Shown here piece after piece: positions 11,112 through 19,164 of a DNA stretch of 64,000 nucleotides (its first letter is position 1; the number at the start of each line of letters is the position of its first letter). The position numbers and the translations under genes are program-made. Location: NCBI GenBank assembly GCA_963782915.1, contig CAWALK010000001.1:96001-160000 (forward strand). Direction: 5' to 3'. The notes under the pieces are model-generated. The model saw only the letters and a program-made list of their open reading frames with translations, was not told the DNA's origin and made no database searches. The stretch is from an uncultured archaeon. Its GTDB lineage: Archaea > Thermoproteota > Bathyarchaeia > Bathyarchaeales > Bathycorpusculaceae.

Positions 11112-11375
11112 ATGTGTTTGGAAGAAGCCGTAATAGAAATAGGGAACGTCATTCATTATTTCCAAAAAATCAACGTTGCCATAGTCGAATTATCTCTGCC
11201 CCTCTCTGTCGGAGACCGCATCCTAATCAAGGGACCCTCGACTGATTTCGAGCAGACTGTGGATTCTATTGAGGTTGACCGTAAACCTATTAAACGCGCT
11301 GAAGGCGGACAAAGCGTAGGTTTAAAGTTATCTCAGTTGACGCGGGTAAAAGACGTTGTTTTCAAAAAAATCTAA
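11112..11375 (+). CDS. EF-Tu-domain-II/U32 C-terminal-like beta-barrel protein
   Basis: IGNVIHYFQKINVAIVEL...LSVGDRILIKG..TDFEQTVDSIEVD...VGLK. Confidence 0.8.
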   Translation: MCLEEAVIEIGNVIHYFQKINVAIVELSLPLSVGDRILIKGPSTDFEQTVDSIEVDRKPIKRAEGGQSVGLKLSQLTRVKDVVFKKI

Positions 11376-12502
11376 GGGATTATTTCGGCGCCGTTAAACT
11401 TTATATAATCAAAATCTTCCAGCCTAATTCGTCCGCTTTGAATGAGTTGTTGTATTCTTGGCAGATTACGCTGCACCGATTCAATCAATTGCTCCACAGT
11501 AAAGCAGACTTTGCCATAAGCATCGTCAGGCCACCGCTTAACAATGTTAGTGTATAGGCATCGTCCCCCGCAAACACCCAAAATTTTGCATTCACTGCAT
11601 GGTTTCTGGCTAACAAAGAGTTTAGGCAATTTTAGCGGATCTGCGTCTTTTATGTGGCCCATATAGTAGGCTTTCATTCCCCACATGGTTGGGCAAGGTA
11701 TTATTTGGCCATCCATCTGGATAGAGTAGTTTATCCATCCGCTGCCACAACGCATCAACGCATTCTCTTCACCGTGCAAGAGTGAGTTTGTGATGCCCAG
11801 AATCGGGTAGAGCTTGAGCACCTTTCCCGTCTGCTCCATCTCGTCTACCCAGTAACGGACTAGAGAATCAACGCCTGGGATATAGCTGGATTTGGTCCAT
11901 TCCTCAAAGTTGCGGCGTTTAAAATCGTTGCCCCAGAAACCCGCGTTGAGTTGCCAATGAATTGAAGTGAACGAGAATTCATCATTATGCAGGAGCCATT
12001 TCACTTGTTTTTCTATATCGGTTTGCTCCATGATCGTCATTCTTGCTATTAACTCGCCTTTGAAACCGTTTTGTTTTATGAGTTTGAGGTTATCGATGAC
12101 TTTGCGGAAGGTGCCTTTTCCACGGTAATAGTCTGTGAGGGCTTCTTCGCCATCGATTGATACCAGCAGAGTATGGAAGCGGTTGACGTATTGGGGCTCA
12201 AGTTTATCGAGCAGTAAACCGTTTGTTTGCATCATGTACAGTTTAGGCGTGACTGTATCCATGATTTGGCGCAGTTTATCCATCTGCATTAAGGGTTCAC
12301 CGCCATAGAAAGTTAAAACACAGTCGGGGTCCTTTTTGACAAAGCCTTCCAGTTGGGCTATGTCGTAGTTGGCTTTGCGGGGCAAGTTATAATCGACTTC
12401 TATGTCGTCTCCGAATTCCTCGTCAAAGTCATCCATGCTTTCGCCGAAGCAGTATTTGCATTGCAGGTTGCAGTCGCTGGTGAGCAGTAGATGGAAGAAC
12501 AT
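11372..12502 (-). CDS. Radical SAM/SPASM protein (resembles the archaeal AF0577/TIGR04084 putative peptide-modifying family)
   Basis: CNLQCKYC, FYGGEPL, QTNG, SIDG. C-terminal CGSG...PCP...CSECKILGVCGGRC...C. Confidence 0.88.
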   Translation of the reverse strand: MFFHLLLTSDCNLQCKYCFGESMDDFDEEFGDDIEVDYNLPRKANYDIAQLEGFVKKDPDCVLTFYGGEPLMQMDKLRQIMDTVTPKLYMMQTNGLLLDKLEPQYVNRFHTLLVSIDGEEALTDYYRGKGTFRKVIDNLKLIKQNGFKGELIARMTIMEQTDIEKQVKWLLHNDEFSFTSIHWQLNAGFWGNDFKRRNFEEWTKSSYIPGVDSLVRYWVDEMEQTGKVLKLYPILGITNSLLHGEENALMRCGSGWINYSIQMDGQIIPCPTMWGMKAYYMGHIKDADPLKLPKLFVSQKPCSECKILGVCGGRCLYTNIVKRWPDDAYGKVCFTVEQLIESVQRNLPRIQQLIQSGRIRLEDFDYIKFNGAEIIP

Positions 12503-12528: not shown

Positions 12529-13887
12529 TTAATAGTATTTTTCTGCTAATTTCTTGGCATCTTCATAATTCTTATCAGTTTCAGGTGTCGAATTAATTTG
12601 TTTCTTGTTTTTCTTCTTGAGTAGGTTTTTGTTTTTTACCTACTTTTTCTGCTTCTTTTGTAGCTTTCTTTTTGGCGTTTTCAATATAGCTTTTGAGGTC
12701 CCGGTCTTTCATAAGTTTTTCAGGCAAAGTTTCAGGAGCATAAATCAACGGCAAAACCGCGAGAAAGAGGAAGACACTAGCAAATGGGAAAATCGTACTG
12801 CCTCTGCATGAGAGAGAAATGGCGTAAACAGTAATTGCATGAAATAGGAGGATATGTAAGGCAATGCGCCTAAAACATAGAATTTGTCGCCTTTTCCATT
12901 TTGGGCCAGATCACCCCATAATGTAAAAACAAATAATACGAAAAATATTCCCCAAGCTATACCGTCAGCTACGAAATAAATTATGCTTCCCAATAATAGA
13001 TCTGCGCCATTGATGGAAAACATCCCTATTACGGCATATCCGATACCAAGCATAACGAAACCTAATATCGATAATCGTTTACGGCCCCACTTATCAGCAA
13101 CCAAACCACATATTACTGCTACAATGGCTGTTACAACATTCTCCATTGCAACCAGTAGAGTATATTGAGCGTTATTTGTCGCAAAAAGAGTACTTTGAAT
13201 TGGCATAGTCATAAAATTAATGAGAGTAAACATACACCAAGGGACAAAGTACAGAACAAAGGATTTATTGAAAATTATTTTTGTATAATTTTACCTTACT
13301 AGTCTGTTTAATCGGTTCCTCTTTGCCAATTAAGGAGATAGAAAAATACTAAACCTATCAACCGAATAAAAGCAAGAATCAAGCAACTATGCAATAAGCG
13401 AGTCGAATACTACTAAACCAAGGATAGCAAATGTAATTCCAATTATCAAAAATGAAATCCCACTAATTTTTGCTCTATTCTCAACAGTTGTAACGACAGC
13501 GTGATAGCCCATAGTAGCGGGCATGCCTATGCCGAAATATACCCCAAAGACAGCGGATATTATTACTAAACCACTAAAACTTGAAGCGTTATAGACCAAG
13601 GGGTATAACAGATAAAATAACACCGCTTGCTAACCAGACTAAAAGGAAATCTCCTCGCTTCTTGAATTTGTCGAATAAAAGTACCCAGCGAATGCTGAGA
13701 GTACTATTGCCAAGGTGTTAATTCCAATTATTTGAAGTGTCAATAATGTGGCATCTTGTTTTGGAAGTAGGTCCTTTATGGTATCAAATGCAAGTAAATA
13801 CCACACAAAAGCGTTCACTACTAGCATTATGTTTGCAGTGGCAAATCTTAGGCTTGTCCTATTTGGCATGGGCCATGTGTGGAACAT
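12529..13887 (-). CDS. MFS-type transporter, split by several frameshifts (probably sequencing errors)
   Basis: Fragments 13639..13887, 13387..13623 and 12745..13233, plus a manually read tail IFPFASVFLFLAVLPLIYAPETLPEK...AEKYY-stop at 12529. MFS motif A GLVADKWGRKR. Confidence 0.8.
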
Positions 13888-13968
13888 CTACACTTTAGTT
13901 ACAACTATTGTGTGCAGCAAGTTAAGGGTTGAGTATGAATAAACCAGATTAGTGGTAACTAAACTACC

Positions 13969-14015
13969 GAAAAAGCTTTAAAGTATATCTGTAGAACAGG
14001 AATACAGAGAGGAGA
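13969..14015 (+). promoter_or_regulatory. BRE/TATA promoter and Shine-Dalgarno of peptide gene 2
   Basis: GAAAAAGC-TTTAAAGTA (TATA at about 13977-13985); GAGGAGA at about 14009-14015; TTG at 14022. Confidence 0.65.
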
Positions 14016-14021
14016 CCTAAA

Positions 14022-14067
14022 TTGAAAACAAACACACAAAATCATAAGATCAGTAGGTTGGTATTAG
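14022..14067 (+). CDS. Putative precursor peptide 2 (MKTNHKIIRSVGWY after removing one extra base)
   Basis: TTG AAA ACA AAC a CAC AAA ATC ATA AGA TCA GTA GGT TGG TAT TAG. KIIRSVGWY-stop is read directly at 14038-14067 and is +1 relative to the TTG. Shares KII and SVGWY-stop with peptide 1. Confidence 0.65.
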
Positions 14068-14071
14068 TTAA

Positions 14072-15070
14072 TTATTCAAAGTAGGTGAGAGGGACTAATA
14101 GGAGATCTCCCAGTTCTTCTCTTATTTTTCCATTAATTGAAGTTGGCAATTGTTGGACGACCGTTTTTGTGTCGGCTACCAAAGTTTTTTGAAGAAGTTT
14201 GACCTCGTTTGATTCAAGGACTATTTCAATAATTTTCTGATGGCGCTCATTCTGCAATGAATCTCCATTTAACAAGGGGAACAGCATACTCTTGATTTGT
14301 GGGTTTTCAAGAGCATATATAATCGGTAAAGGAGGGCATTCATTTTTCAACCTACTTTTAAGCTCCTCAAAATCTAAGAGATCAGCAAACTCCTCCACTA
14401 TGATAGAAGTAACCCCGTATGCTCTGCCAAATTGCCCAAGCCTTTCAACATCATCCGAATTACCCCCTCCAATGATGGCGCCGATTTTCATAGTTAACTC
14501 AGGAACAACCGCTTTTAACCGTATTATCTCATTGAATTTAGCTGGGTTGAAATCTTGTTGATTGTGAAGCTGGATTTCAAGGATTTCCGCATTACAGATT
14601 TCCAAAACTGCTTCGGTAACTAACTTCATGACTCTTCCGAATGCTTCAGGGTTTTGGTTGATTGCTTCACTTAACCTCTTGAAACCTTCCGCTAGTAAAA
14701 TATCCCCCGCAAGAATAGTTGTTGCCAAGCCATATTTTCCAAAAACTGTTTGTTTCATGTTTTTTCGAACCGACTGGTCAAGGACATCATCGTGTAAATC
14801 GGCTGAGGCAGTTATGAAAACTATTGCTTCAGCAAAAGGAGCAACTCTTTTGGTGTCGCCTTCAACTGCTTCACAAGACATAGTAATTAATGCTGGAAAA
14901 ACAGGTATGGGGCTATGGAGCGTAACATTAGCGAAGTATCGGAGTGCTTGTGAGATATAACTGTCATCGTTGAAGTTTACAATGATGCTGTTTTTAGTGT
15001 TATTCATGGCGGGTCCGCCTTTTTGCTTGAAACTTCTTTTAATGGCGCGTAACTTCGAATCGTTGGACAT
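14072..15070 (-). CDS. Divergent polyprenyl-synthetase-fold protein (ComQ-like candidate peptide prenyltransferase)
   Basis: FARM ADLHDDVLD, TVFGKYG..TTILAGDILL. GKxxRP replaced by PIPVFP, RRG by RKN, GQxxD by AEILE, SARM by EEFAD. Confidence 0.8.
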   Translation of the reverse strand: MSNDSKLRAIKRSFKQKGGPAMNNTKNSIIVNFNDDSYISQALRYFANVTLHSPIPVFPALITMSCEAVEGDTKRVAPFAEAIVFITASADLHDDVLDQSVRKNMKQTVFGKYGLATTILAGDILLAEGFKRLSEAINQNPEAFGRVMKLVTEAVLEICNAEILEIQLHNQQDFNPAKFNEIIRLKAVVPELTMKIGAIIGGGNSDDVERLGQFGRAYGVTSIIVEEFADLLDFEELKSRLKNECPPLPIIYALENPQIKSMLFPLLNGDSLQNERHQKIIEIVLESNEVKLLQKTLVADTKTVVQQLPTSINGKIREELGDLLLVPLTYFE

Positions 15071-15152
15071 TGATTTCAGCTCTTATCTTAGTTAACCAAA
15101 GTATTTTAAAATCAAATTAGGCTCTTTTTGCTTATTAATCAATGGGAAGATT

Positions 15153-15176
15153 AAGGGATAAAAAAAATTACCCCTT
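15153..15176 (-). terminator. Imperfect hairpin/T-tract between peptide 1 and the prenyltransferase
   Basis: Minus strand AAGGGGTAA-tttttt-TTATCCCTT, about 12 nt after the peptide stop codon. Confidence 0.5.
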
Positions 15177-15187
15177 GTTTTTGTTAA

Positions 15188-15241
15188 TTAGTACCATCCG
15201 ACAGATGCTGGCGCGCGTGCTTTGATGATTTTTCTGTTCAT
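15188..15241 (-). CDS. Putative precursor peptide 1 (MNRKIIKARAPASVGWY)
   Basis: Minus strand AGAGGTGA-aatac-ATG AAC AGA AAA ATC ATC AAA GCA CGC GCG CCA GCA TCT GTC GGA TGG TAC TAA. Strong SD, and a paralogous C-terminus at 14050-14067. Confidence 0.8.
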   Translation of the reverse strand: MNRKIIKARAPASVGWY

Positions 15242-15280
15242 GTATTTCACCTCTTAGTGTAGCCCTGATTATTGTGATTT

Positions 15281-16120
15281 TTACTCCAAGTATCCATTGA
15301 TCCATGCGAGTACTTGAGGTGTGTCAAGTCTTGTGTGGTAGCTTACGCCGCCACAGTTGCTGCTTGAAACAAATGCGTTGACTGCCAATACGGTGTCTTT
15401 TCCGTCTTGGGTGTAGATTACAGGGCCGCCTGAATCGCCGAATACTATTGCGCCTTTGCCGCCGCCGTTGTTGGCGGTTAATTTTAGGTAGCAGCTGCTG
15501 CCTTCAAAGTTGGATGGTACCAGTTGTACTTGGGCGCTGTTGCGTGATAGGGTGCCAATCCAGGAATATTCTGGGCCATTGTTTCTTGGGTTGGTTTGGG
15601 TTTGCATGCCATATCCGATGATTGTCAAATCTGTTTTGGATGCTAAGGTTTCCGCTATACCTGCTTGGGGAAGTGCTGGAAACTCTGTTATGCCAGTGAC
15701 TGGTTGGTCCAGTATTATTAAGCCGATGTCGCTAGTAGAGAATTCTTGGTTGCCTGAAAATGCAGGAGCATATTCTGAATAGGTTACTCGTGTACCTGTG
15801 TAGATTGTGTCTGCACCATAATAGATGACTTGTCCGTCTTGGATGGCGTAGCTGATTGGACCCTGATCGAAGCAGACGCTGACTGCCTCTGCGCCGAGCA
15901 GGCTGTGTCCGGCTGTAACCATCACTGTTGGGGAAATGAGGAATCCGCTACAGTAGCCGAAGGGATGCTGTCGGGCGGCATCGCTGAAGAGTACGACGAC
16001 TCCAACGTATGGGGTTGCGTCTGGCCGGGAGTTGCCTGTTATTGCTGTAGCTGTGCCAAAGAATAATGGTGCAGAAAGTAAACATGATAGTGCAATTATT
16101 ATTGCCCAAGCTTTTTTCAT
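15281..16120 (-). CDS. Secreted S1-family (chymotrypsin-fold) serine protease
   Basis: Signal peptide; CSGFLISPTVMVTAGH, DIGLI, GDSGGP catalytic triad motifs. Confidence 0.92.
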   Translation of the reverse strand: MKKAWAIIIALSCLLSAPLFFGTATAITGNSRPDATPYVGVVVLFSDAARQHPFGYCSGFLISPTVMVTAGHSLLGAEAVSVCFDQGPISYAIQDGQVIYYGADTIYTGTRVTYSEYAPAFSGNQEFSTSDIGLIILDQPVTGITEFPALPQAGIAETLASKTDLTIIGYGMQTQTNPRNNGPEYSWIGTLSRNSAQVQLVPSNFEGSSCYLKLTANNGGGKGAIVFGDSGGPVIYTQDGKDTVLAVNAFVSSSNCGGVSYHTRLDTPQVLAWINGYLE

Positions 16121-16278
16121 ATTCTAAACCTGAATATACGATGTCGTGAGTAGCAATATATAAAGCGAGTGTATTGCAGCTACTGATTCAGCGCTTGTGC
16201 AACAAAACAACTGTACAACACAACTACATCACCAAAAAGCAAAACTCTTAATAGCCAAGCCTTTTATCACAAGGTTTT

Positions 16279-19164
16279 ATGAGCCAAACCAAGCAAATGG
16301 AGCAGAAATGGCAGCAAAAATGGGAAGCTGCGCATCTCTTCGAAGCCGACCCTGACCCCAAACGCGAAAAAAAGCTGGTAACTTTCCCGTTTCCATACAT
16401 GAATGGCCCATTGCATGTTGGCCACACCTTTACTGCCAGCCGCGTTGACGCTTATGCCCGTTTCAAGCGTATGCAGGGTTACAATGTGCTTTGGCCTTGG
16501 AGTTGGCACTGGACCGGTCAACCGCTGCTTGGTGCATCTCTGCGGGTGGCAAGGGGCGATGAAGCTTACATCAAAGTGCTGCGCGAAGTCGATGGCGTCC
16601 CTGAAGCGGAACTTCAAAAATTTGTTGACCCCTTCTATATGGCTCAATACTACACTAACGAGGGCCGTGCCGCTGTTAAGGGCGTTGGTTTCTCGGTTGA
16701 TTGGCGCCGCGAATTCACCACTGTTATGCCGACTTTCCAAAAGTTTGTGGAGTGGCAGTACAAGAACCTCAAAGAAAAAGGCTATGTCACCCGTGGCACT
16801 CATCCGGTGGTTTGGTGTCCTAAAGATCAATCTCCAACCGGTGACCATGACCGCCAAAGCGGCGAAGGCGTCACCCCCGAAGAATACACCCTAATCAAGT
16901 ACAAACTGCCCGACGGCACGGTTTTGCCTGCGGCGACTTTCCGCCCCGAAACCATCTACGGCATCACTAACATGTGGATTAACCCGGACGCCACCTACGT
17001 GGAAGCAGACGTCAACGGCGAAACCTGGATTATTAGCCAGGAAGCCGCTGAAAAACTCAAAGAACAAGAGAAAAAAGTCACAGTCAAACGCAGCTTCAAA
17101 GGCGCAGAACTCATAGGCAAAACCTTCGAAAACCCCGTTACAAAACTCAAGTTTCCGATTCTGCCCGGCTGGTTTGTTAACCCCAAAACCGCCACCGGCG
17201 TCGTCTACAGCGTCCCAGCCCATGCACCCTACGATTACCTCGCACTCACGAGACTTGCAGCAGAAGCCCGAAGTGCTCAGCCCAATTCGGCGTGGACCCC
17301 GCGATGGTGCAGGCGATTAAACCAATCTCAATCATTAAAGTCGAAGGCTTCGGCGAATACCCCGCAGTCGAAATCGTCGAAAAAATGGGCATCAAAAACC
17401 AAAATGATCCCAAAGCCGACGAAGCTACCAAAGAACTCTACAAAAAAGAGTTCCACGGAGGCAAACTAAAAGAAAACTGCGGACCCTACGCGGGCAAAAG
17501 CATCCGCGAAGCCAAAGACATCTTGATCGGTGACTTCAAAAAAATGGGCGTCGCCGACAGCATGTATGACCTCTCCGAACCAGTAGTTTGCCGATGCATG
17601 ACACAATGCATCGTAAAGATCCTCTCGGATCAATGGTTCCTTAACTACTCCGATCCGCAGTGGAAGGAGTTGGCGCATCAGGCGGTTGCGCAGATGAACA
17701 TTTACCCCGACTCAGCTAAACCATGGTTCAACACCGTGATCGATTGGCTACGCGAATGGGCTTGTGCACGCACAACTGGTTTTGGTACGCCGTTGCCGTG
17801 GGGTAAAGGCTGGATAATTGAGACGTTAAGCGACAGCACCGTTTACATGGCATTCTACACCATAAACAAACACATTAAACAGAACAGCATAAAACCTGAA
17901 TCACTAACAACCGATGTTTTCGACTATATCTACCTCGGCAAAGGCAATGCAGCGGAACTCTCACAATCCGTGGGAATCGACGTAACACTGTTGGATTCGA
18001 TGCGTAGCGAGTTCCTCTATTGGTACCCGCTTGACTTCCGCAACAGCGCCAAAGAACTGGTACCAAACCACCTTAGCTTCTGCATATTCCACCACGCCGC
18101 ATTATTCCCACCTGAGCATTGGCCCAGAGCCATCGGCGTCAACGGCATGCTAATGGTTGAAGGACAAGGCATGCATAAAAGCAAAGGCAACTTCATCACC
18201 ATGAAGGGCGCAGTCGAAAAGTACGGAGCAGATGCTACTCGCTGTGGGTTGCTGTTGGGTGCTGAAGGGATGGATGATCCCGATTGGCGAGCTGAAAACG
18301 TCAATGATCTCAAAACCAAATTTGAGAGTGTGATGGGTTTTGCAAGCAATATCCTTGCAACAGCCAAGAATGACGATAATACGGCTTTGGAGCGTTGGTT
18401 AGAGAGCCGTTTGCAGCAGCGCATAAAAGATGTTACAGCTGCGCTTGATGAGTTAAAGACTCGCACTGCACTGCAAACCGCGCTGTTTGAAACGTGGAAT
18501 GACCTGCGATGGTACATCCAACGTAAGGGCAACACCAACGCCAAGGTACTGGGCGATGCAGTTAAAGACTGGTTAAAGATGCTTGCGCCCTTTGCACCAT
18601 TCATGTGTGAGGAACTCTGGAGCCAAACAGGCGAAGAAGGCTTCATCAGCGTCGCCAAATGGCCAGTCTACGACCCAGCTAAAATAGATGCAGCCGCTGA
18701 GGAACAAGAAAACCTAGTCACTGCTGTCATGGGCGATACCAACAACATCTTGAAAGCCATGAAAATCGCGCCTGCCAAAATCGTTTACTACACCGCTGCT
18801 CCATGGAAATGGCAGGTTTACCTCAAAATCGTCGAGAAAACCTTAGCTGGCGAAGCAAAAATCAACGAGTTAATGAAGGAATTCGCCTCTGACCCCGCCT
18901 TGAAGCCGCATATGAAAGACATCGCCCCAATGGTACCCACGCATAATTAAAGCACTCACCAAAGTTTCAGGCGACCGCAAAGCAAACATAACCAAAATCC
19001 GCGAAGTAGACGAAAAAGCAATCCTCCAAGGCACAGCAGCATTCTATAAAGACCGCTTCAACGCAGAAATAGCAGTTTACGGCGAATCTGACGAGCAACG
19101 CTTCGACCCCAAAAGCCGCTCAGCAATGGCAATGCCCTATCAGCCAGCAATCTACATCGAATAA
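16279..19164 (+). CDS. leuS: Leucine--tRNA ligase (archaeal type), frameshifted near 17250-17280 and 18940
   Basis: FPFPYMNGPLHVGH, AATFRPET, VYSVPAHAPYD, IETLSDST, GMHKSKGN. C-terminus AMPYQPAIYIE-stop at 19164. Confidence 0.95.

Follow-up and report, generated by a model that had tools for sequence, protein, structure and literature searches.

A handful of bacterial systems are known in which a peptide tryptophan (Trp) is prenylated by enzymes resembling isoprenyl diphosphate synthases (IDS). For ComQ and StheQ, the target is a Trp close to the C-terminus of the adjacent peptide (bioRxiv 10.64898/2026.08.29.745113), and PalQ prenylates a C-terminal Trp, prefers Gly before it and favors the ends GW and GGW (PMC10853753, PMC13290415). 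Here we describe a locus of an uncultured archaeon of the Bathyarchaeia in which a gene for a protein of the trans-IDS fold (14072..15070, minus strand) lies between two micro-open reading frames (micro-ORFs) with the common tail SVGWY, peptide 1 (15188..15241, minus strand) and peptide 2 (14022..14067, plus strand). The window, that is, the whole stretch of DNA analyzed, comprises 64,000 nucleotides (positions 96,001 to 160,000 of contig CAWALK010000001.1, assembly GCA_963782915.1), and coordinates count from its first base. An initial annotation, made from the letters of the window alone, had proposed an archaeal ComQX-like system at this place and had known of no such system described in archaea, and none was found in the literature that we searched, a search with subscription journals outside its scope. 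A 2026 review (PMC13290415) lists ComQ, PalQ and the P domain of ChrPC and, in the available part of its running text, mentions archaea only for lipobox lipidation; in the available text of a 2025 survey of archaeal peptides made on ribosomes and modified after translation (RiPPs) (PMC12144867), the word prenyl is absent.

Comparison of this locus with its relatives suggests that a ribosomal peptide modification system of Bathyarchaeia is the best explanation, namely a ComQ/PalQ-like system of Trp-prenylated peptides that would have arisen independently in archaea; we put the probability of this reading at about 0.6. The evidence for it includes the conservation of the micro-ORFs beside the enzyme gene, the common C-terminal end of two otherwise different peptides and the pattern of kept and lost residues in the enzyme.

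Trp-ended micro-ORFs accompany the synthase-like gene

Of 61 related genomes, 40 encode a homologue of the enzyme at E <= 1e-10 and 32 at E <= 1e-30. A scan of the species representatives of GTDB returned 228 relatives, and the 80 loci retained from it were nearly all titled Bathyarchaeota or Bathyarchaeia. After removal of duplicates and of genes cut by contig ends, 113 matches in 110 loci gave a set of 103 unique complete enzyme genes, around which we searched for candidate peptides, defined as micro-ORFs of 8-30 amino acids with a canonical start codon, at least three Lys or Arg residues and a Trp within the last three residues. As a control, the same search was made around 289 other ORFs of at least 200 amino acids from the same loci.

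The Trp-ended micro-ORFs sought around homologous enzymes, as the initial annotation had suggested, were present at 81 of the 103 enzyme genes, compared to 19 of the 289 control ORFs. Most were of the convergent kind, with a candidate lying between −40 and +80 nt of the stop codon of 70 of the 103 enzyme genes and of only 6 of the 289 controls. Candidates of the upstream kind, on the strand of the enzyme gene and within 250 nt of it, occurred at 29 of the 103 enzyme genes versus 14 of the 289 controls, and homologues of this kind follow the pattern MNKKIIR[AG]KP...GWx. The pairing of peptide and enzyme persists down to about 30% enzyme identity. Thus, the comparison strongly supports reading these tiny ORFs as genuine, conserved genes that are linked to the polyprenyl-synthase-like enzyme.

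Two sets of loci depart from the common arrangement. At L007, L008, L042 and L048, four related loci, the convergent frame ...KITKKIC(T/R)R..KPSGWY is conserved but contains no ATG, GTG or TTG, and these loci also lack neighboring genes for a major facilitator superfamily (MFS) transporter and a radical S-adenosylmethionine (radical-SAM) protein; they may use a non-canonical start codon or hold a decaying gene. Two enzyme paralogues, in tandem or close by, occur at L014, L056, L082 and L099, and at L014 and L082 the convergent peptide lies beside the second enzyme copy only.

Two differently led peptides share one C-terminal end

Most of the 99 unique candidate peptides were 12-20 amino acids long, with a median of four Lys or Arg residues and a median of zero Asp or Glu residues; Cys was present in 5 of the 99. 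The last Trp was the final residue in 35 peptides, the next to last in 60 and the third from last in 4, its presence within the last three residues being the filter condition and hence true of every counted peptide. Gly preceded the Trp in 53 of the 99, giving tails of the types (G)-W, (G)-W-x and W-W, and an [IVLPAT]-R motif lay one to five residues ahead of the Trp in 59. The residue after the Trp, where there was one (64 peptides), was most often Y (12), followed by L (9), G (8), I (7), F (5) and H (4). The initial annotation had named Tyr as an alternative target, an idea that was not borne out: Y follows the Trp in only 12 of 64 peptides and 35 of 99 end in Trp itself. With the residue after Trp variable or absent, Tyr was ruled out as the modified residue, and the comparison strongly supports Trp as the fixed residue, usually with Gly before it.

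Where a locus carries both kinds of peptide, the ends agree. At 17 two-peptide loci, picked by the identity of their tails, 36 of the 85 codons for the last five residues differ synonymously between the two genes and only five non-synonymously, in line with the proposal of the initial annotation that the tail is conserved at the level of the protein and is not a DNA repeat. When pairs were drawn blind to the tail, the first convergent candidate being set against the upstream one closest to the enzyme, at least four of the last five residues were shared in 15 of 18 loci, with a mean of 4.06 versus 1.90 for shuffled pairs, and the observed mean was reached in none of 10,000 shuffles. The shared tails vary by species and include SVGWY, QAGWI, SSGWV, SAGWM, SMGWW, WSGWL, VVGWL and TFGGW, among others.

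The window pair is a case in point. As had been noted initially, SVGWY is written with different codons in the two genes (TCA GTA GGT TGG TAT TAG in peptide 2 and TCT GTC GGA TGG TAC TAA in peptide 1), amounting to four synonymous and no non-synonymous differences, with different stop codons (TAG and TAA). In all six frames of the 3,282,830-base genome, the string GWY-stop is found at only two places, both in this locus. A chance origin and a DNA inverted repeat were ruled out by this genome-unique pair together with the purely synonymous differences between the copies.

The N-terminal 8-12 residues are basic and differ between the two kinds of peptide, the last five are shared within a locus, and there is no long leader, a composition that suggests a five-residue core. 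Since the two genes have different N-terminal parts and positions, they are therefore apparently held to one C-terminal core, which drifts between species. The class of tail also follows the enzyme tree, with 31 changes compared to 45-55 in 300 shuffles, a fit that shows joint inheritance only, since related sequences share labels.

The micro-ORFs in the window and their expression signals

Peptide 1 was found as initially annotated, an intact ORF of 17 codons (ATG MNRKIIKARAPASVGWY TAA) at 15188-15241 on the strand of the enzyme gene, which it precedes by a spacer of 117 nt, with the Shine-Dalgarno (SD) motif GAGGTGA at 15247..15253 (minus strand), 5 nt ahead of the ATG. For peptide 2, the initial annotation had placed the boundaries, the promoter and the SD motif rightly, but the ORF is not intact in the assembly, where a 1-nt insertion breaks its frame. 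As assembled, 14022-14067, from a TTG start to a TAG stop (14065-14067), measures 46 nt and is no multiple of three, so that the TTG at 14022 is one base off the frame of the tail and opens the neighboring frame MKTNTQNHK... The frame that ends KIIRSVGWY-TAG is closed by a TGA at 14023-14025, contains no ATG, GTG or TTG and reads KQTHKIIRSVGWY from stop to stop. The genes for peptide 2 and the enzyme converge, with their stop codons 4 nt apart.

The extra base lies in the run AACACAC of the window, near 14036, and is absent from all five aligned relatives. Among the public sequencing runs listed for 13900-15400, none was of RNA. Of four such runs compared (as DNA contigs and in small shares), only the contig set of one sediment-metagenome run, X3, spanned peptide 2; its contig of 156 nt (depth 4) is one base shorter at 14036 and otherwise shows two substitutions. 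With the extra base removed, the TTG at 14022 opens an ORF of 14 codons ending KIIRSVGWY, which matches in length and pattern the MKTNTKIIRSTGWR of relatives (L035). Two larger genes of the window are broken as well. Aligned to an intact relative, the leucyl-tRNA synthetase (LeuRS) gene (16264-19161, plus strand) falls into three segments in frames 3, 2 and 3, broken near 17256-17268 and 18937; because an essential gene carries two frameshifts, indel errors in the assembly are suggested. The MFS transporter gene (12529..13887, minus strand) aligns over its full length and in one frame to an intact relative (43.8% identity) but is interrupted in frame by TAG (13639, 13630 and 13387), by TAA (13330 and 13291) and by additional stops beyond these, TGA among them, so that this copy is either a pseudogene or affected by local sequence errors. 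Given the two frameshifts in the LeuRS gene and the several stops in the MFS gene, the break in peptide 2 is likely an assembly error, the alternative being a mutation of the strain. A second contig of X3, from a related strain, shows 13 differences over 15220-15359 and diverges before 15220; its loose end encodes, on the minus strand, a peptide 1 tail ...NVGWY, in which GWY is kept and the preceding residues are changed.

Signals for expression accompany the micro-ORFs generally. An SD-like purine motif was present for 85 of 100 candidates, and the start codons were ATG (73), TTG (18) and GTG (9). Archaeal promoters combine a B recognition element (BRE) with a TATA box, some 25 nt ahead of the transcription start. 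The convergent genes show such a layout, with CGAAA..CTTTTAAG (BRE/TATA) 40-50 nt before the start codon, a TGTA(G/C)AACA box, AATACA(G) and the SD motif. In the window, the promoter and leader of peptide 2 (13967..14014, plus strand), as read from the sequence and the aligned upstream regions, consist of the BRE/TATA CCGAAAAAGCTTTAAAG (13967-13983), the box TGTAGAACA (13990-13998), AATACAG (14001-14007) and the SD motif GAGAGGAG (14007-14014). The same layout was present at most of the 45 upstream regions viewed, out of 68 convergent peptide genes, and in the alignment of relatives, upholding the initial assignment to peptide 2 of a BRE/TATA and an SD motif of its own. The TGTA(G/C)AACA box stands between the TATA box and AATACA and, in the regions viewed of L019, L028 and L085, has a second copy upstream of the TATA box. 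The box may be a repressor operator, and PadR or TrmB-like genes lie near many loci. The upstream-kind genes lie behind the stop codon of a gene for a trypsin-like protease. They have a strong GAGGTGAAA SD motif, which precedes most upstream-kind peptides of relatives, and no TATA box of their own, and are probably co-transcribed.

These signals bear on whether the micro-ORFs are translated. If they were not, the conserved stretch could act as RNA, either antisense or as a terminator, at the 3' end of the enzyme gene, as its convergent position, at times overlapping the enzyme stop codon by 3-26 nt, would allow. We regard this as extremely unlikely, since start codons and SD motifs are conserved, the convergent gene has a dedicated promoter, the copies at paired loci differ at 36 codons synonymously versus five non-synonymously, and the same tail recurs in a second gene of another position and orientation. 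No known RNA family was identified either: the sole Rfam match in 13300-15800 was AbsR28, with an E-value of 0.66 and 17.8 bits compared to a gathering threshold of 50.

The enzyme appears to keep the prenyl donor site of an isoprenyl diphosphate synthase

The enzyme is a protein of 332 amino acids that matches PF00348 (polyprenyl_synt) with 80.2 bits (cut-off, 27). Its AlphaFold2 (AF2) model is all-helical and of the trans-IDS fold (pLDDT 92.6, pTM 0.91), with the geranylgeranyl diphosphate (GGPP) synthase of Pyrococcus (1wy0) as the best Foldseek match (TM 0.84) and, among the top matches listed, only proteins of the IDS fold. The best matches in both sequence and fold are ordinary archaeal GGPP synthases, and a protein language-model atlas placed the enzyme only in polyprenyl-synthetase clusters, mostly of Bathyarchaeota. 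However, no equivalog cut-off of NCBIfam was reached, the best equivalog, IdsA (IdsA_Meth), scoring 93.7 bits against a cut-off of 468, and the genome encodes a separate, more canonical IDS, which has both Asp-rich motifs and scores 204 bits to IdsA.

In trans-IDS enzymes, the allylic diphosphate is bound, with Mg2+, at the first Asp-rich motif and a conserved Lys, and isopentenyl diphosphate (IPP) at a basic N-terminal stretch. The first motif is kept here as D91-x-H-D94-D95-x-x-D98, and across 26 family members D94, D95, D98, K103, T108 and D230 are invariant and D91 nearly so. At the second motif, AFQIWDDVLD of 1wy0 aligns with TSIIVEEFAD, and the family as a whole has (E/D)-E-F-x-D and no Gln. 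In the IPP stretch, R48 and R50 of 1wy0 (RVRP) align with P56 and F58 (PVFP), so that two Arg are replaced. Judged by these alignments, the donor site looks intact and the IPP site altered. The term degenerate, used initially for this enzyme, is therefore too simple, the first Asp-rich motif being invariant and the second replaced by another conserved one. The residues before the first motif set the room for the prenyl chain in enzymes of this fold. Those four and five positions before it are Ala and Ser, compared to Ser and Tyr in 1wy0, which suggests room for a long chain, GGPP or longer.

The same data must be weighed for the possibility that the enzyme is a working IDS or another prenyltransferase of small molecules, providing a precursor of lipids or a cofactor, with the micropeptide as its partner rather than its substrate. 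The ordinary synthases among its fold and best matches agree with this, as do the acidic second motif, with a full D-D-x-E-D in sister clades, and the place beside the LeuRS gene, housekeeping-like and conserved in 36 of 81 loci. Public annotation points the same way: the family is labeled as GGPP synthase, heptaprenyl diphosphate synthase or polyprenyl synthetase family protein. We nevertheless consider it unlikely, in view of the two replaced Arg, the scores far under all NCBIfam equivalog cut-offs and the presence of the other, more canonical IDS. Two variants of the partner role likewise seem rather improbable: a regulatory or inhibitory subunit that blocks the active site with its C-terminal Trp, and a cationic peptide that is co-exported unmodified. 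For a regulator, there would be no need to retain a fixed Gly-Trp end whose species-specific flanks recur in two differently led peptides, and the known precedents for such a gene pair are pairs of enzyme and substrate.

The peptide genes belong to a larger conserved module

Across 81 clustered loci, one strand carries, in order, the gene for the enzyme, an MFS transporter gene (73 of 81) and a gene for a radical-SAM/SPASM protein of TIGR04084 (55 of 81), with the convergent peptide gene in the spacer between the enzyme and MFS genes. In the window, the MFS gene lies directly 3' of the enzyme gene and is followed by the radical-SAM/SPASM gene (11372..12502, minus strand), which encodes 376 amino acids and matches TIGR04084 with 307 bits (cut-off, 225). 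As judged from gene order, the conserved module is larger than the enzyme and the peptides, including the MFS transporter and usually the radical-SAM/SPASM protein, and a precursor, one or more modifying enzymes and an exporter are conserved as a unit across the 81 loci, a feature of RiPP-type clusters.

Upstream of the enzyme, two contexts were observed. The first, to which the window belongs, has the LeuRS gene (36 of 81 loci) with or without a trypsin-like protease gene (17 of 81). The window encodes such a trypsin-like (S1) serine protease of 279 amino acids (15281..16120, minus strand; PF00089, 42.4 bits compared to a cut-off of 20.6), which ends 40 nt before peptide 1 and whose hydrophobic N-terminus looks like a signal peptide. 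The second context comprises two PadR regulators, an amidohydrolase and an ABC-2 transporter; at L060, L069, L073, L077, L080, L081, L094 and L110, it takes the form of a divergent PadR pair, an amidohydrolase, a DrrA-like ATP-binding cassette (ABC) ATPase and two ABC-2 permeases, a layout typical of export or immunity modules.

Adjacency was compared with the presence of peptides in the 72 loci with a complete enzyme gene. The upstream-kind peptide was present in 11 of 12 loci with the protease but in only 9 of the 60 others, and a peptide was found in 44 of 50 loci with an adjacent radical-SAM gene and in 14 of 22 without one. In other classes of the phylum, the sister enzymes carry R-D-D-[IL]-E-D, an MFS gene adjoins in 7 of 15 loci and a radical-SAM gene in none of 15. 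Clear convergent peptides were found in three of these 15 loci, two of them with tandem duplicates of MKNYNPTPVRLWVPG-like genes; these two, L112 and L113, come from complete genomes and have an enzyme with R-D-D-I-N/E-D, two tandem convergent MKNYNPTPVRLWVPG-like genes of 15 codons and an MFS gene, and no radical-SAM gene. Conversely, the five loci with the radical-SAM gene but no enzyme gene yielded no clear family-like peptide, the one candidate, at L129, with an internal KPSRRAW, being ambiguous. Because it is present without the radical-SAM gene and no clear one occurs in the loci with that gene alone, the peptide travels with the synthase-like enzyme.

This distribution also makes it very unlikely that the peptide is the substrate of the radical-SAM/SPASM protein alone, for a Trp cross-link or a cofactor like pyrroloquinoline quinone (PQQ) or mycofactocin, with the synthase-like gene as a mere neighbor. 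Such a role would suit TIGR04084, which belongs to the SPASM maturase group and whose next-best models are PapB, DynA and YhhB, and it would suit a radical-SAM gene that adjoins at 55 of 81 loci and a peptide found in 44 of the 50 such loci counted. Yet the peptide occurs in 14 of the 22 loci without that gene and in the loci of other classes that lack it throughout, is not clearly present where that gene stands without the enzyme, and is encoded by a gene that abuts the enzyme gene and not the radical-SAM gene; moreover, Cys in only 5 of 99 peptides makes thioether chemistry unlikely.

A proposed route to prenylated peptides

We propose that the enzyme is a paralogue of an archaeal short-chain IDS that has kept the Mg2+/allylic-diphosphate site and lost the canonical residues for IPP. 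It would bind a prenyl diphosphate, perhaps GGPP or longer, and, like the bacterial ComQ, StheQ and PalQ, prenylate the conserved Trp on its indole. In most Bathyarchaeia, the radical-SAM/SPASM enzyme would add a further modification, and the protease, where present, would trim the Lys/Arg-rich N-terminal part, after Arg. The last five residues or so, identical within a locus and varying by species, would be the mature species-specific core, and the resulting lipopeptide would be exported by the MFS protein.

Several observations weigh against Trp prenylation by this enzyme. Under our filter, 22 of the 103 enzyme genes had no candidate peptide, and these are clustered in basal clades; L007, L008, L042 and L048 keep the convergent frame but without a canonical start codon, and in the window the genes for peptide 2 and the MFS transporter are both broken. 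In the enzyme, the Gln that is conserved upstream of the second motif in Trp prenyltransferases (PMC13290415) is missing, with Ile, Val, Lys or Arg one turn before the motif, and Glu-Glu replaces the Asn-Asp pseudo-motif of ComQ and StheQ (bioRxiv 10.64898/2026.08.29.745113). The second motif is still acidic (E-E-x-x-D, with D-D-x-E-D in the sister enzymes of other classes), with which ordinary Mg2+-dependent chemistry on another acceptor would be compatible. In addition, Ord1, an all-alpha indole prenyltransferase, ranked 29th among the fold matches (TM 0.74, sequence E-value about 1e-11) and is thus no closer to the enzyme than ordinary synthases, and the peptides are far shorter than known leader-bearing precursors, such as PalX with its NHLP leader and StheX with 69 amino acids.

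Prenylation as proposed may also serve signaling, an extension that we offer tentatively and hold to be doubtful: in Bathyarchaeia and some other Thermoproteota, prenyl-Trp micropeptides could act as species-specific secreted signals, made by a system that originated from an archaeal GGPP synthase independently of ComQX, in which two differently led precursors yield one five-residue core that diversifies in the manner of pherotypes. If so, Archaea would have their first peptide pheromone system. If Trp prenylation itself holds, this chemistry would reach into Archaea, in a lineage of sediment and soil that ranks among the most abundant uncultured ones, and the enzyme would offer to enzymology and to tools for peptide lipidation an acceptor site built differently (E-E-F-x-D and no Gln). 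Should the product be a signal or an antimicrobial lipopeptide, it would provide a route to cell-cell interaction in organisms not yet grown. The peptide genes represent a class of unannotated genes of 12-20 codons, usually skipped by gene callers, and the labels GGPP synthase and heptaprenyl diphosphate synthase probably mis-state isoprenoid metabolism in reconstructions for Bathyarchaeia.

Comparison with known systems

PalQ, described as a homodimeric trans-IDS-like enzyme, offers a close parallel in its substrate, since the GW, GGW and GWx tails found here fit its preference for Gly before Trp. PalQ activity is lost, according to the review cited above (PMC13290415), when residues follow the Trp, whereas 64 of 99 archaeal peptides have one or two residues after the last Trp. 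In PalQ homologues, the second motif retains its Asp residues (PMC10853753). PalX carries an NHLP leader and lies near a kinase gene, unlike the archaeal peptides, which are without a long leader. Ord1 (PDB 9v4g-j) shares the fold and binds its donor at the first Asp-rich motif; it acts on free tryptophan, however, and not on a peptide.

The archaeal IdsA/GGPP synthase type (1wy0), a PF00348 member like the enzyme, is its best match in sequence and fold. In the enzyme, by contrast, the second motif is replaced, as are two Arg in the IPP stretch, and micropeptide and MFS genes stand alongside its gene. PqqA/PqqE and MftA/MftC combine a small precursor, the business end of which is C-terminal, with a radical-SAM/SPASM partner. 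The archaeal cluster likewise has a small precursor and such a partner, but here the radical-SAM protein is dispensable for retention of the peptide, there is an exporter and the core changes from one species to another.

ComQ/ComX and StheQ/StheX resemble the archaeal system in the trans-IDS fold with an intact first motif and an altered second one, and in an adjacent small gene with a Trp near the C-terminus and a variable, species-specific core. The differences are also clear. The archaeal enzyme has neither the Asn-Asp pseudo-motif nor the upstream Gln; the Trp is last or next to last, compared to internal in ComX and StheX, and the precursors have 12-20 amino acids versus 55-69; the peptide gene is convergent and, in one clade, to which the window belongs, there are two precursors per locus, unlike in ComQX; and the archaeal cluster contains no ComP-like kinase. 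The nearest sequence relatives of the enzyme are archaeal GGPP synthases and not ComQ, and no ComQ model was among its 14 NCBIfam matches. Of the ComQX-like character put forward in the initial annotation, the arrangement and the probable manner of working thus stand, and membership in the ComQ family probably does not. In sum, the archaeal enzyme is probably not a member of the ComQ family, but the system that it forms with its two small peptides resembles ComQX and PalQX in arrangement and probable mode of action.

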